A DNA stretch of 64,000 bases from positions 14,880-78,879 of the forward strand of contig MGFR01000001.1 of NCBI GenBank assembly GCA_001791995.1, in the 5' to 3' direction. The notes under the pieces are model-generated. The model ran no database searches and was not told where the DNA came from. It saw only the letters and a program-made list of their open reading frames with translations. Made by a program: the position numbers and the translations under genes. Of this stretch, positions 4,580 through 15,869 are shown in pieces. This stretch comes from Candidatus Woesebacteria bacterium RBG_13_46_13 (GTDB taxonomy: Bacteria; Patescibacteriota; Microgenomatia; UBA8517). Numbering within the stretch: position 1 is the stretch's first letter; the number at the start of each line of letters is the position of its first letter.

Positions 4580-4706
4580 ACTGTTCTGGCGATGAAGTAT
4601 TTTCGCGCCCAGTTGCCCGGGAACTATCGTCCTCGCTGAGGCGTTTGACTTCTGAGTTCGGAATGGGATCAGGTCGTTCCACCTCGCTCCAATCACCAGA
4701 ACAGTG
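4580..4706 (-). rRNA. rrf: 5S rRNA
   Basis: The minus-strand sequence contains the 5S core CCTGATCCCATTCCGAACTCAGAAGTCAAACGCC. The terminal helix CACTGTTCTGGTG pairs with CATCGCCAGAACAGTG. Ends are approximate within 5 nt. Confidence 0.8.
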
Positions 4707-4749
4707 CCCTCAACTAATGCTATTTTGTACTTTTAAATCTGAAGAGAAA

Positions 4750-7668
4750 AGTTCGTAAGTCTCTCGACCTATTCGCACTGGTAGGCTTAACAGCTTACGC
4801 CGCTTCCACCGCCAGCCGATTAACCCAGTATTCTCCTGGGGGTCTATGACGAGTTCTAATCTTAGGGTGGGCTTCCCACTTAGATGCTTTCAGCGGTTAT
4901 CCCTTAGGAATATAGCTACCCGGCGTTGCCGCTGACGCGACAACCGGCACACCAGGGATTCCTTCAGCCTGGTCCTCTCGTACTGAGGCCAACTCCCTTC
5001 AAAACTCAAACGGTTCCACCGGATAGAGTCCGAACTGTCTCACGACGTTCTGAACCCAGCTCACGTACCACTTTAACGGGCGAACAGACCGACCCTTGGC
5101 ACCTTCTCCAGCGCCAGGATGTGATGAGCCGACATCGAGGTAGCGAACCGCGCCGTCGCTATGGACGCTCGGGCGCGACTACTCTGTTATCCCCGGGGTA
5201 GCTTTTATCAGTTAAGCTCCGTGCATACCCATTACGCATCGGAGGATCATTAAGACCTGCTTTCGCACCTGCTCGCGACTTCTCGCTTGCAGTCAAGCTG
5301 GCTTTAACCTTTATGCTTTGCCTACGATTTCCATCCGTAGTAAGCCAACCTTTGTACCCCTGCGTTACACTTTTGCAGGGTACCGCCCCAGTAAAACTGC
5401 CCATCTGACACTTTTCCCAAACCTGTATTCAAGGCTTCTGGGTAAGATTTGCTACATTCCAAAGAGAGGTGTCACATTGACGCTTGCGCTCCCTCCTACA
5501 CTTGACAATCAGAATAAGTAAATCAATGCCAAACTACAGTAAAGCTCCACGGGGTCTTTTTGTCCTGGTGGAACAAGGCCGCGTCTTCACAGCCATCGCA
5601 ATTTCGCCGAGTGAATGTTCAAGACAGTTATTTGCTCGTGACGCCATTCGTGCGGGTCGGAACTTACCCGACAAGGAACTTCGCTACCGTAGAACAGTTA
5701 TAGTTACTGCTGCCGTTTACTGGAGCTTTAGTTCAGAGCAAAAATCTTGCGATAATCACCCCTCCCCTTAACTTACCAGCACTGGGCAGGCGTCAGCCCC
5801 TATACCGTGTCTTTCGACTTCGCAGGGACCTGTGTTTTTGATAAACAGTCGACAAATAAACTTTTGCTGTGACCCGTCTTGCGACGGGTAACCCATCTCC
5901 CAAAGTTACGGGTAGATTTTTTGCCGAATTCCTTGAACATCCTTCTCTCGCTCACCTTAGACTACTAGTCCAACCCACCTGTGTCGGTTTACGGTACGGC
6001 TTGATCTGAATCTCGTTGCGAAACTTTTCCTGTTGGTTGAAATTGTTGGAATCGCCCCACTCTCGCAGGACTTTGCATCACTGCTTAATTAATCGCATCA
6101 AGGGATTTTCCACCTGACACTACTTAACAGCTTGCACCAGACTTCACGAACTGGCTCCAATTATCCATCCAAGTCATTCCCCAACTAATAACGATTCAAA
6201 CCAAATACTAGAATTTTAACTAGTTATCCATCGACTACGCCATGTGGCCTCGCCTTAGGTACCGACTAACCCGCCCTCGACGAACGTCTGGGCGGAAACC
6301 TCGGGTATTCGGTGCCTCAGATTCTCACTGAGGTTGTACGCTACTCATACCGGCATTCTCACTTCCGACCGCTCCATCAAACCTTACGGTTCAACTTCAC
6401 CGCTGTCGGAACGCTCCCCTACCACGCGGATTGCTCCGCATCTTTGTCTTCGGCGTTATCTTTAATCCTCGATAAATCTTTGGCGCCCCCTTCCGTCGAC
6501 CAGTGAGCTGTTACGCTTTCTTTAAAGGGTGGCTGCTTCTGAGCCAACCTCCTGGCTGTTTGAGAAAAGGAACTTCCTTTGAAACTTAAGATAAACTTAG
6601 AGGCCTTAGACGAAAGTCTGGGATTTTTCCCTCTCGCCACATCAGCTTAGCCCGATGTGACTGTCTACCACGTTAATGTACACTGCTATTCGGAGTTCGA
6701 TTGAAACAAATTGGTTGCCCTCTCTGTCCCATTCGGTGCTCTACCATCAGTAACACCTTGCGTGGCACGGTCCCTATAGACCTTTCGGGGAGAACCAGCT
6801 ATCTCCAGGTTCGATTGGTATTTTGCCGCTAACCACAAGTCATCCCACCGGATTGCAACCCAGACGGGTTCGGGCCTCCCCTCGATTTTCATCGAGGTTC
6901 ACCCTGCTCATAGTTAGATCACCTGGTTTCGGGTCTGCCGCACTTTTCTAAACGCCCTTTTAAGACTCGGTTTCCCTACGCCTGCCCGCTTGCGCGGTAA
7001 GACTAGAAAAGGACGGCAACTCGCCGGTTCATTCTTCAATAGGCACGAGATCACTCCCTTACAGGAGCTCTCTCGGTTTGTCCGCAAACAGTTTCAAGTT
7101 CTATTTCACTGGGTGTCTCACCCTTCTTTTAACCTTTCCCTCGCGGTACTAGTTCACTATCGGTCCTTATCTATATTTAGCCTTGGAGGATGGTTCCCCC
7201 AGATTCCCACAAAGTATGTGCTCCGTGGTACTTGGGATACTTCTAGAGCCTCGTTTGATTTCGCGTACAAGACTTTCACTCTCTATGGTCGGCAATTCCA
7301 TGCCGTTCCGCTATCAAACAAGGTCTCACATTAAAGTCCCGCAACCCCCCAGCAAACTCCTTGCGGAGCAAGCTAAGGTTTAGGCTTCTGCGTTTTCGCT
7401 CACCGCTACTTGCGCAATCACATTGTTTTCTCTTCCTCACCCTACTTAGATGTTTCAGTTCGGGTGGTTCCCGTCTTTTCCGTTAGTAGTCCCGATAAAT
7501 CGGAACGCTTGGCGAAAAAGCCTGCATAAAGCAGAGGTTTCCCCATTCGGACACCGCCGGATCAAAGCTTCGTGGCAGCTCCCCGACGACTATCGCGACC
7601 ATGTACGTCCTTCTTCGGTAGATAAGACCAAGGTATCCACTGTCTGCGTTCTGTAAAAACTTACGACC
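4750..7668 (-). rRNA. rrl: 23S rRNA, about 2.9 kb, no intron apparent
   Basis: On the minus strand the 5' region reads GGTCGTAAG...CAGTGGATACCTTGGTC (GGTGGATGCCTTGGC-like). The 3' region contains GGGATAACCGCTGAAAGCATCTAAGTGGGAAGCCCACC and ends near ...GAGACTTACGAACTT. Ends are approximate within 10 nt. Confidence 0.95.
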
Positions 7669-7750
7669 TTTCTCTTCAGATTTTAAAGTACAAATCAAAC
7701 GTTAATGAGCAGTGGACAGCCCCGATATCAAATCGGGGCTCACCACTACC

Positions 7751-7827
7751 CACTGGTGGACCCGGGGAGAGTCGAACTCCCTGCCTCATCATTGCAAATG
7801 ATGCGTTCAAACCGGGTAAACTTCGGG
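7751..7827 (-). tRNA. tRNA-Ala (anticodon UGC), CCA encoded
   Basis: Minus strand: GGGCCCGAAGTTTACCCGGTTTGAACGCATCATTTGCAATGATGAGGCAGGGAGTTCGACTCTCCCCGGGTCCACCA. G3-U70 wobble pair in the acceptor stem, anticodon loop TTTGCAA. It lies about 80 nt upstream of the 23S. Confidence 0.9.
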
Positions 7828-14267: not shown

Positions 14268-14281
14268 CTTATTTTCCCACT

Positions 14282-14312
14282 AAAAAACCACCTCATTAAA
14301 GGGTGGTTTTTT
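14282..14312. terminator. Bidirectional intrinsic terminator. It ends the plus-strand CDS and lies about 100 nt beyond the 16S 3' end on the minus strand.
   Basis: AAAAAACCACC-TCATTAAAG-GGTGGTTTTTT, with A-tract and T-tract on either side. Confidence 0.7.
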
Positions 14313-14411
14313 GTTGTCTTTGACGACCAGGAAATGACTAGGAGGAAGCCCGTTTTCTTAACAGTGAAACGGCGAATTTAAAACTGGGGTGTAAAATACC
14401 ACACTCCTTAG

Positions 14412-15869
14412 AAAGGAGGTGATCCATCCGCACCTTCCAGTACGGATACCTTGTTACGACTTAATCTTCATCGCTGGTGTCACCTTCTGCCCGAACATCG
14501 GACATTCGGGTGCCCCCAACTTTGCTGACTTGACGGGCGGTGTGTACAAGACCTGAGAACGTATTCACCGCGACATAGCTGATTCGCGATTACTACCAAT
14601 TCCGCGTTCATGAGGGCGAGTTGCAGCCCTCAATCCCTACTGAGAAGCCGTTTGATGGGATTAGCTCCGTGTTACCACTTGGCAACCCATTGTCGGCTTC
14701 ATTGTAGCATGTGTGTTGCCCCGGACATAAGGGCCATGCTGACTTGACGTCGTCCCCACTTCCTCCTCGCAAAGCGAGGCTGTACCATATGAATATTCAA
14801 CATATGGAAGGGGTTGCGCTCGTTACCCCACTGAAGGGAACACCCCACGGCACGAGCTGACGACAGCCATGCAACACCTGTGCTATCATCCTTACGGATC
14901 GGTCTCCGTTTCTGGAGACTTAAACGATAGCATGTCAAACCCGGGTAAGGTCCTTCGGTTCGTCTCGAATTAAACCACATGCTCCACTGGTTGTGCAGGT
15001 CCCCGTCAATTCCTTTGAGTTTTAAGCTTGCGCTCGTACTCCCCAGGCGGCTCGCTTAACGCGTTAGCTTACGGAACCCCCGATAAATCGAGGATCCCTA
15101 GCGAGCAAAGTTTACGGCTAGGACTACAGGGGTCTCTAATCCCTTTCGCTCCCCTAGCTGTCGTTCCTCAGCGTCAAAGATTCCCTAGCTACTTGCCTTC
15201 GCCCTTGGTGTTCCTCTCGATATCAACGGATTTCACCCCTACACCGAGAGTTCCAGTAGCCCCGAGAACTTTCAATCTAAGTAGTATTACACCCCTTCCC
15301 AAGGTTAAGCCCTGGTCTTTGAAGTGTAACTTACCTAGTCGCCTACGAAACGCTTTACGCCCAGTAAATCCGGATAACGCTTGCACCCTCTGTATTACCG
15401 CGGCTGCTGGCACAGAGTTAGCAGGTGCTGATTCTCCAAGCTCATTGGTGCTTGGCAAAAGAGGTTTACAACCCGAAGGCCTTCATCCCTCACGCGGCGT
15501 CGCGGCGTCAGACTTTCGTCCATTGCGCACGATTCCCAGTTGCTGCCACCCGTAGGTGTATGGGCCGTGTCTCAGTCCCATTCTGGGGGGTCACGCTCTC
15601 ACGTCCCCTACCCGTCATAGCCTTGGTAGGCCATTACCCTACCAACAAGCTGATGGGAGATAGGCTCATCCCTCGGTGCGCAGTTACGCGCTTTCTCCTT
15701 GCGGACTTATGCGGTATTAGCCCGTCTTTCGACGGGGTATTCCCCGCCAAGGGGTAGATTCCTATCTTATACTCAGCCGTTCGCAACTTGCCTCTTGCGA
15801 GGCCCGTTTTACTTGCATGCTTAAAGCACGCCGCCAGCGTTCATCCTGGACCAGGATCAAATCCTCAAA
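14412..15869 (-). rRNA. rrs: 16S rRNA, about 1.46 kb, no intron apparent
   Basis: Minus-strand 5' end GAGGATTTGATCCTGGTCCAGGATGAACGCTGGCGGCGTGC. The 3' end is ...GTAACAAGGTATCCGTACTGGAAGGTGCGGATGGATCACCTCCTTTC. Confidence 0.95.

Follow-up and report, generated by a model that had tools for sequence, protein, structure and literature searches.

Why does the 16S ribosomal RNA (rRNA) gene of Candidatus Woesebacteria bacterium RBG_13_46_13 stand several kilobases away from the 23S gene, with protein genes on the opposite strand between the two? The question is raised by a stretch of 64,000 nucleotides of this genome (contig MGFR01000001.1, positions 14,880 to 78,879; hereafter the window), in which a gene for a VirD4-like ATPase and a transfer RNA (tRNA)-Ile gene lie inside the gap. 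The original prediction, made from the letters of the window, had read this layout as an ancestral 16S-Ile-Ala-23S-5S operon disrupted in this genome by the insertion and inversion of mobile or foreign DNA. The comparison with relatives leads to another answer: the layout is very probably the normal, inherited rRNA arrangement of a Woesebacteria lineage (Candidate Phyla Radiation (CPR)/Patescibacteria, Microgenomatia) and not a recent disruption, the former operon seemingly being read as separate units.

The RNA genes were called with Rfam and ARAGORN, and their ends agree with those first proposed to within 1-4 nt. On the minus strand are located the 5S rRNA (4584..4700; RF00001, 74.6 bits), the 23S rRNA (4751..7666; RF02541, 2441 bits, model positions 1-2925), the tRNA-Ala(UGC) that opens the tRNA-Ala/23S/5S unit (7754..7830; ARAGORN and Rfam) and the 16S rRNA (14412..15872; RF00177, 1377 bits, model positions 1-1533); both large rRNA genes are full length and without intron. 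The tRNA-Ile(GAU), found by both programs at 9436..9509, is on the plus strand, opposite to the rRNA genes. The 3' end of the 16S is 6,581 nt from the 5' end of tRNA-Ala and 6,745 nt from the 5' end of the 23S (14412 to 7666); the separation of two minus-strand blocks by 6.6 kb, as well as the broken canonical order, is therefore confirmed by the gene map. Besides the tRNA-Ile, the gap contains five credible open reading frames (ORFs), corresponding to the two membrane proteins, the VirD4-like ATPase, the GC-rich secreted protein and the protein with a twin-arginine (Tat) signal that had been described, the Tat motif having a borderline score. The tRNA-Ile, the ATPase, the GC-rich gene and the Tat-signal ORF (o347) all read on the plus strand, against the minus strand of the rRNA genes.

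The loci of relatives encoding the ATPase, designated here by L numbers, were retrieved with flanks of 10 kb, both from genomes (one for each species) and from metagenome contigs, and the rRNA genes, tRNAs and window proteins were mapped onto each of them. The 23 loci with both flanks share the order (srt-RadA-S1-)5S-23S-tRNA-Ala, tRNA-Ile, ATPase, 0-5 ORFs and 16S, with the ATPase on the strand opposite to that of the rRNA genes; 13 more are consistent with it, showing one side before the contig end or a 16S without 23S within 10 kb. The closed chromosome OY970314.1 (L017) carries the complete layout, and the closed chromosome CP066686.1 (L020) carries tRNA-Ile, ATPase and 16S, with no 23S in the fetched stretch. 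In a neighbour-joining tree of the ATPase the rRNA-embedded copies (63-100% identity) all fall in one clade, while homologues at most 53% identical (from Shapirobacteria, Saccharibacteria and others) have no rRNA gene within 10 kb. Since the embedded copies form one clade and share one layout, the 16S/23S split is, as judged from these sequence comparisons, ancestral to a broad Woesebacteria clade. As the origin of the split, an insertion of mobile or foreign DNA in this genome is thus contradicted, the layout and the opposite-strand ATPase being found in every relative with enough flank. The original prediction had itself named the comparison with relatives as a check, to be decided against it by the same unlinked arrangement with no extra genes: the same arrangement is indeed found, and the relatives do carry extra genes.

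These extra genes occupy two slots beside the ATPase, and the length of both varies widely. The left slot, from the 5' end of the 23S to the ATPase start and including both tRNAs, measures 578-5,334 nt, and the right slot, from the ATPase stop to the 3' end of the 16S, measures 114-7,006 nt; 79 of the 164 slot ORFs are unmatched in any other locus. Across the clade the ATPase alone recurs, together with the o347 family, which adjoins the 16S in 12 loci. In the window, the left slot carries two minus-strand ORFs, each with an N-terminal transmembrane (TM) segment: o189 (8092-8661; 189 aa), a small protein, and o177 (8807-9340; 177 aa), a membrane-anchored one. The alignment with L053 and L058, the closest relatives (ATPase 84-86% identical), places them exactly between two divergent promoters; in these two loci only about 235 nt separate tRNA-Ala from tRNA-Ile. 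The single homologue of o189 is at the same position in another strain, and o177 is an orphan whose sole match among 5.8 billion proteins is the sister-strain copy. A paralogous origin of o189 and o177 was considered and ruled out (BLASTP E = 0.35).

The strain represented by L060, an independent assembly 93-99% identical to the window, is colinear with it and shows three differences: it has no counterpart of window 8030-8743, its GC-rich gene is one repeat unit shorter, and its 23S contains a 748-bp insertion (L060 6065-6812, equivalent to window 5685/5686). The first of these defines a strain-variable segment carrying o189 (8030..8743, minus strand), which is missing in L060, present in L061 at 86% nucleotide identity and bordered by two imperfect copies of a 17-nt direct repeat, at 8028 and at 8757. 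Presence/absence polymorphism is limited to this 0.7-kb segment, and the core is in all relatives.

The composition of the gap is heterogeneous. Among the 44 window ORFs of at least 150 aa, the GC content at third codon positions (GC3) is 0.55 ± 0.064; the ATPase (0.60) and o347 have native composition, while o189 (0.65), o177 (0.71) and the GC-rich gene (11978-13159, plus strand; 393 aa, signal peptide; GC 0.65, GC3 0.78, z = 3.6) are atypical. The description of the gap as foreign-looking is hence appropriate for these three atypical or variable genes and not for the ATPase and o347. The high GC of the GC-rich gene might be taken as a mark of recent import. However, the family to which the gene belongs (family A) has GC3 of 0.59-0.78, against 0.40-0.61 in the adjacent ATPase, in the seven genomes compared (the window, L001, L033, L053, L055, L058 and L060); as GC is high in all seven carriers, it is no sign of recent arrival, and so lasting an excess would be better explained by selection or biased gene conversion than by a recent transfer. 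No integrase, transposase, recombinase or named phage function was found in the gap ORFs with Pfam, NCBIfam and PHROGs, and no direct or inverted repeats were found at the borders of the 6.6-kb block, the only repeats being the internal ones around o189 and the GC-rich gene.

Transcription signals, understood here as consensus matches backed by conservation, are consistent with independent units. The promoter that the original prediction had assigned to the tRNA-Ala/23S block is the top-scoring promoter-like site between 4300 and 16600: TTGACG-18-TATAAT (7987..8016, minus strand; consensus scan) agrees with the consensus at 11 of 12 positions, and its two hexamers do not vary among the window, L001, L053 and L058, while their surroundings diverge. 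An 11/12 site occurs 145-230 nt 5' of tRNA-Ala in 13 of 29 loci. Between promoter and tRNA-Ala there is a leader hairpin with a T-run (7868..7890, minus strand), which is kept in L053, L058 and L001 and is possibly an attenuator or a boxB-like element; the conservation of a boxA-like element upstream of tRNA-Ala could not be confirmed. The 23S has its own processing stem, formed by 7660-7694 and the complementary 4724-4760. At the other end of the unit, the S1 (rpsA-like) gene, recognised by a Pfam match (3452-4549, minus strand), starts 35 nt 3' of the 5S, with no intervening terminator seen; the S1-5S pairing is kept in relatives, the srt-RadA-S1-5S-23S order is common across the clade, and S1 may be co-transcribed with 23S and 5S.

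The 16S is provided with signals of its own. The 5' half CAGGAAATGACTAGGAG (15923..15939, minus strand) and the 3' half CTCCTAGTCATTTCCTG (14328..14344, minus strand) of its processing stem, one on each side of the gene, are perfectly complementary over 17 bp. Next to the stem, the bidirectional terminator announced at 14282..14312 was found as an A-tract, a 13-bp hairpin and a T-tract at 14281..14313, an intrinsic terminator on both strands that ends the plus-strand block as well as the 16S unit. In 21 of 31 loci, equivalent elements with different stems (CCACC/GGTGG, CCCGC/GCGGG, CCCC/GGGG) lie 90-250 nt 3' of the 16S; since the hairpin is kept while its sequence changes, selection on the terminator structure is argued for. 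Upstream, a control region (16207..16306, minus strand) comprises promoter-like TTGACG-17-TATGAT (16306-16278), a ATGAGAAAAGTTTGA block (16267-16253) and a U6 hairpin (16226-16207); it is kept, with a covarying stem, in L053, L058, L003, L007 and L055. The block, with the general form ATGAGAAA(A)G(TT)TGA, begins 10-12 nt after the promoter and corresponds to a mini-ORF of 3-4 codons, MRK(V), while the covarying hairpin stands about 330 nt 5' of the 16S. Rfam gave no credible match to a known RNA family in the 16S leader, which may act as an attenuator or produce a small RNA. A CTTTAACAATT-like motif (boxA) is located 169 nt 5' of the 16S in the window and in three relatives and is not generally conserved. 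An arrangement resembling the 16S leader, with a promoter followed by a U-run hairpin, also precedes tRNA-Ala (8016..7868).

Upstream of the tRNA-Ile stands TTGTTT-17-TAAATT, with the TG of an extended -10 (9396..9424, plus strand), identified from the sequence and its alignment, and a TG(G/T)TAAA(A/T)T element is found 5' of the tRNA-Ile of relatives in either orientation. On the ATPase tree this orientation switches several times between sister taxa, the basal branches being canonical. The plus strand and the separate promoter of the tRNA-Ile therefore stood up to scrutiny, while its inversion turned out to be one of two orientations in the clade; because a promoter accompanies the gene in both, the tRNA-Ile would flip without cost, and the inverted state is unremarkable. 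For the ATPase, a TATAAT box (9557..9562, plus strand) lies 9 nt 5' of the ATG, and a Shine-Dalgarno sequence is missing. The same configuration, with the box ending 6-11 nt 5' of the ATG, is found in 35 of 39 loci and leads to the prediction of an mRNA that is probably leaderless. As a whole, these signals make separate transcription of the 16S and 23S units plausible.

Some observations weigh against an old and stable arrangement of separate units. The ATPase homologues at most 53% identical may be paralogues, so that the age of the rearrangement is not fixed by them. No 23S lies within the 10-kb flank of L018, L020, L034 and L037, and in L033 (3-8336; ATPase 80% identical) the 16S is 5.7 kb downstream of the ATPase and on its same strand; together, L033 and the loci without 23S indicate that the layout keeps evolving. 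Furthermore, U-run hairpins stand between both rRNA promoters and the RNA genes (7868-7890 and 16207-16226): if they terminate efficiently, the true rRNA promoters would have to be elsewhere, at weaker downstream sites, or, alternatively, rRNA transcription would read through the hairpins by antitermination or attenuation. Finally, L007, L025 and L026, in which only 114-158 nt separate the ATPase stop from the 3' end of the 16S, have no T-run terminator, so termination after the 16S is not universal.

How far do these data leave room for other explanations? A recent split of an intact operon in this genome, by a mobile or foreign insertion with inversion that brought in the ATPase and other genes, would account for the atypical GC3 of three of the five ORFs, for the presence or absence of o189 between near-identical strains, for the orphan o177 and for the GC-rich gene being enclosed in a perfect inverted repeat of 16 nt; VirD4-like ATPases are moreover typical of conjugative elements. 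Yet the split and the ATPase are shared by all sampled relatives, with ATPase identity down to 63%; the ATPase and o347 are native in composition, high GC is common to all seven carriers of the GC-rich family, the gap has no repeats at its borders, and no integrase, transposase, relaxase or VirB4 was found either in the gap or in the other scanned window ORFs. Such an event can at most apply to the 0.7-kb o189 segment and perhaps to o177; its core is contradicted by synteny, and it is to be considered highly improbable. The suspicion of an assembly artefact, with rRNA regions misjoined as often occurs in metagenome-assembled genomes (MAGs), is not without ground, as this region is hard to assemble and the contigs of many relatives, as expected for MAGs, end inside rRNA genes. 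However, the identical order and junctions recur in dozens of independent assemblies, the closed L017 has the full layout and the closed L020 its 16S side, contigs of 200-780 kb are among the sources, and the separate assembly of the 93-99% identical strain is colinear over all junctions, which reduces the chance of an artefact to almost nothing.

A third possibility is that one long 16S-to-5S precursor is transcribed antisense through the whole 6.6-kb block, the internal promoter and terminator being weak or regulatory, for example through antitermination. Three to five gap genes have promoters of their own, and transcription of the plus-strand ones would collide head-on with such a precursor; 16S and 23S are each flanked by a processing stem of their own, some relatives have gaps of more than 15 kb, the 11/12 promoter is conserved 5' of tRNA-Ala, and the strong terminator after the 16S is kept through covariation in 21 of 31 loci. 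Against these points, the hairpins with U-runs after both rRNA promoters mean that read-through of terminator-like hairpins would be needed anyway, and a T-run terminator after the 16S is missing in the relatives whose spacer is minimal. On balance a continuous precursor appears quite unlikely, and an inherited arrangement of separate units is the preferred reading.

The fixed element of this arrangement is the ATPase, a conserved core gene encoding 710 aa (9572..11704, plus strand). The protein matches the Pfam domains TraG-D_C (29.0 bits, cut-off 22), TrwB_AAD_bind (27.9, cut-off 20.5) and DUF87, all above the gathering score, and carries a Walker A motif at residue 331 (GKTGTGKS) and a Walker B motif at residue 575 (YLYVDE); its best sequence match in the PDB is TrwB. 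By its domains it belongs to the superfamily of type IV coupling proteins (T4CPs), with which (VirD4/TraD/TrwB) it shares the P-loop domain, both Walker motifs and the T4CP Pfam domains. In contrast to canonical T4CPs, two characteristic features are lacking, the membrane anchor and the linkage to a type IV secretion system (T4SS). No TM segment is predicted, the highest 19-residue Kyte-Doolittle mean being 1.39 at residue 407 and therefore not N-terminal, and about 300 aa at the N-terminus form a DUF8128 domain; no T4SS, relaxase or VirB4 family was found among 50 window ORFs scanned by Pfam, which are the gap ORFs, 10 flanking ORFs and 35 further ones, the latter covered by the top 25 of the 62 families that they matched.

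Other comparisons place the ATPase less precisely. The NCBIfam models for T4CP, CedD, VirB4 and HerA all score far below cut-off, the best NCBIfam matches being TIGR03743 (34 bits, cut-off 366) and NF045973 (34.5, cut-off 250), and the protein matches the uncharacterised PHROG family phrog_5156. Its structure model, from a shallow alignment, is weak (predicted local distance difference test (pLDDT) 60, predicted template modelling score (pTM) 0.43), and with this model Foldseek retrieved only T4SS ATPases (TrwK/VirB4, DotL, TrwB, Cag-beta), with TM scores of about 0.24. Homologues are numerous, with 7,513 database matches at E ≤ 1e-10; the best 120 of these, which bear the names Woesebacteria, Microgenomates or Patescibacteria, have 71-86% identity. 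The conservation is higher than that of the neighbouring RadA (44-80%) and S1 (52-80%), an extreme and housekeeping-like degree that, unlike in canonical T4CPs, accompanies the DUF8128 domain and the missing N-terminal anchor. In Patescibacteria 5,713 VirD4-like genes were reported in 2,918 genomes, mostly away from virB4, and these orphan genes were described as "possibly exapted for other functions" (PMC12102498). The ATPase of the window is likewise encoded far from virB4.

In the right slot, the GC-rich gene is part of a cassette (11800..13239, plus strand) whose ends form a perfect inverted repeat of 16 nt (AACAACGGGAGAACAA at 11800-11815 and TTGTTCTCCCGTTGTT at 13224-13239; 16 of 16 nt complementary), of which no further copy exists elsewhere in the 64-kb window. 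The cassette encloses the 5' untranslated region, the gene and a terminator hairpin (13176-13213), while the promoter-like TTGCAA-16-TATAAT with extended TG (11707..11734, plus strand) remains outside the left arm. The repeat pair also brackets the family A relatives in L060 (12229-12244/13369-13384), L053/L054 (L053 12271-12289/13438-13456) and L058 (14623-14643/16420-16440), with compensatory changes in the arms of L053 and L058 (CGGGAG/CTCCCG to CAAGAG/CTCTTG) and the identical cassette orientation in all five repeat-carrying loci. The repeat might serve as an inversion switch for a whole gene or form a long-range stem in the RNA. The flanking inverted repeat, the promoter outside it and the maintenance of the repeat by compensation recall invertons; unlike invertons, the cassette has no recombinase gene in the scanned ORFs and no second orientation among the five loci, and its arms, which enclose a whole gene, are separated by 1.1-1.8 kb.

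The GC-rich protein, which is 100% identical to a protein recorded for Candidatus Woesebacteria bacterium RBG_13_46_13 and for which 18 homologues were found, contains two repeats of about 83 aa and a C-terminal PPTG, hydrophobic segment and RRMKKH tail. The C-terminus, which reads ...DEPPTGPEGALPIAEG before the hydrophobic stretch and RRMKKH, was compared with the LPXTG-type sortase signal. The repeat number depends on the strain, with 393 aa in the window and 299 aa in L060. In another subclade, the proteins encoded 3' of the ATPase (family C) are sortase substrates with LPITG or IPVTG; homology between families A and C is unsupported (hhalign probability 10%). A sortase gene is present in the window at 274-1137, as found by the Pfam scan of flanking ORFs.

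The gene adjoining the 16S, o347 (13263-14267, alternative start 13224, plus strand; family B), has the twin-arginine-like signal SRRGFLK, which is borderline in comparison to TIGR01409 (16.0 bits, cut-off 16.7). In the family, this signal and a PT-rich linker are followed by a C-terminal domain of mainly beta structure, in which the family alignment reveals an invariant His (HSG), Cys (FCG) and Arg; the family may represent an uncharacterised secreted Cys/His enzyme. These invariant residues had raised the suspicion of a divergent sortase, which is unsupported, with a probability of 0.07% by hhalign against the local sortases. No match to o347 was found in Pfam or among PDB sequences, and the single-sequence AlphaFold model (pLDDT 37) is unusable.

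The tRNA-Ile of the window is simple, while in several relatives a functional tRNA-Ile is nested inside another tRNA-Ile(GAU) gene. Nested genes were observed on the minus strand in L007 (8427-8634), L020 (~4500-4860), L018 (~4080-4300), L019 (~1620-1830) and L026 (~9440-9620), and on the plus strand in L055 (~1630-1990) and L013 (~3640-3850). The insert, of about 135 nt, consists of a linker, a complete tRNA-Ile and a second linker, and is located directly 3' of the anticodon, at position 36/37 with an ambiguity of at most 2 bases. The linkers pair as a helix of 13-16 bp with a locus-specific sequence, against 4-10 complementary positions in un-nested flanks. After removal of the insert in silico, the youngest outer copy is again recognisable by ARAGORN as a tRNA-Ile(GAU) in L007, L019 and L020. 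Older, outer layers are decayed in L020, L018, L055 and L013; L020 has three layers and its sister L018 is without the innermost one, which implies that insertion is ongoing. As for an intron family, Rfam finds only the inner tRNA (L007 8300-8760, E ≤ 1). The group I introns of Patescibacteria tRNA genes (PMC13011429) are likewise insertions in the anticodon loop that hide genes from annotation; unlike them, the nested insert is only about 135 nt long, carries a complete second tRNA-Ile between paired arms and has no ribozyme-core match. No description of nested bacterial tRNA genes was found in the literature searched, and the work on tRNA introns of Patescibacteria (PMC13011429) is silent on them.

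Other observations concern the RNA genes more generally. A tRNA-Ile with anticodon UAU is encoded at 46619-46690 (minus strand) of the window, and L046 has one as well; a UAU-anticodon tRNA-Ile is an uncommon bacterial solution for AUA codons, which are usually read by a lysidine-modified CAU tRNA. The 16S and 23S genes of relatives contain insertions of 0.3-1.5 kb, revealed by split BLAST matches (L003, L005, L011, L013, L015, L026, L053 and others), which correspond to the known CPR rRNA introns; some of them encode LAGLIDADG endonucleases (L053), and the rRNA genes of the window have no such insertions.

The locus finds its place among systems already described. Unlinked rRNA genes are presented as common and phylogenetically conserved in Patescibacteria by Brewer et al. 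(10.1101/705046; ISME J 2020), with a 16S-23S distance of >1,500 bp as the threshold, and were reported by Lui et al. (PMC8172020) in 27 of 34 closed CPR genomes, with >2,000 bp for their type D; the latter work distinguishes a class with intervening opposite-strand genes in which co-transcription is impossible. The window, with 6,745 nt between 16S and 23S on the same strand, opposite-strand protein genes between them and conservation within a clade (23 + 13 loci, with L033 as a variant), belongs to this published class, which is likewise clade-specific. Beyond the cases as published, the gap has here a fixed core, the ATPase and the tRNA-Ile with its own promoter, surrounded by two hypervariable slots; a term search of the main texts of Brewer et al. 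and Lui et al. found no mention of the identity or conservation of gap genes or of an internal promoter architecture. The gap core and its promoters are therefore a refinement and not a new kind of system.

Split rRNA operons are also described in Buchnera, Wolbachia, Rickettsia, Mycoplasma gallisepticum, Borrelia and Thermus/Deinococcus (as listed in PMC8172020 and 10.1101/705046). The split operons of reduced genomes similarly combine a 16S unit apart from 23S-5S with a small genome and a single rRNA copy, but their parts are usually tens to hundreds of kb distant, whereas here 3-17 kb separate them and the spacer tRNAs are kept in the gap. The variable, compositionally odd genes beside tRNA genes recall in turn tRNA-targeted islands and integrative elements; unlike these, the locus has no integrase and no att-like repeats of tRNA sequence, and its variable DNA is on the 5' (promoter) side of both tRNAs instead of the 3' side.

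On these bases, the following course of events may be proposed for the inherited arrangement. The gene for a soluble ATPase of the VirD4/TrwB type, native to the chromosome, would have been fixed in a common ancestor, on the opposite strand, between the 16S and the spacer tRNAs. Four units would result: the 16S alone, with its upstream promoter, 17-bp processing stem and, in most genomes, bidirectional terminator; tRNA-Ala-23S-5S, transcribed from its own conserved promoter and probably on into the S1 gene; the tRNA-Ile, served by its own extended -10 promoter, which would explain the orientation flips between lineages; and the ATPase, for which the TATAAT box 6-11 nt 5' of the ATG would direct the synthesis of a probably leaderless mRNA. 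Both intergenic slots beside the ATPase would tolerate the gain, loss and turnover of genes for small membrane-anchored or cell-surface proteins, which in this genome would be o189, o177, the GC-rich gene flanked by inverted repeats and o347.

A bolder extension, in which the 16S-23S gap would be no frozen accident but an organised locus maintained by selection, is advanced tentatively and, with its three elements taken jointly, is rather unlikely. The first element would be the housekeeping-grade ATPase, with its probably leaderless mRNA, kept beside turnover-prone genes for sortase-type surface proteins, where the always GC-rich family inside covarying repeats would fit an inversion switch or a hot spot of GC-biased conversion. 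The second would be a self-replacing tRNA cassette, not described before: a complete tRNA-Ile gene between paired arms would insert into the anticodon loop of the resident spacer tRNA-Ile and, layer upon layer, build up as many as three nested copies in progressive decay. The third would consist of promoter-proximal terminator hairpins on both rRNA units, with the 16S mini-ORF possibly attenuating rRNA synthesis.

For the study of CPR genomes, it follows that "foreign-looking" insertions in rRNA operons should be compared with relatives first, as an apparently recent event proved here to be a clade-wide trait. To the published unlinking of CPR rRNA genes, the locus adds a detail: in one large clade of Woesebacteria the gap keeps a fixed core, made up of a tRNA-Ile that has its own promoter and of a very highly conserved orphan ATPase of the VirD4-like kind. 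This core can be used as a synteny marker joining 16S to 23S in fragmented MAGs, while the variable slots are a defined site for strain-level surface variation. The nested tRNA-Ile genes, the GC-rich cassette bounded by inverted repeats and the promoter-proximal terminators are more novel than the split itself and would be of wider interest if confirmed.

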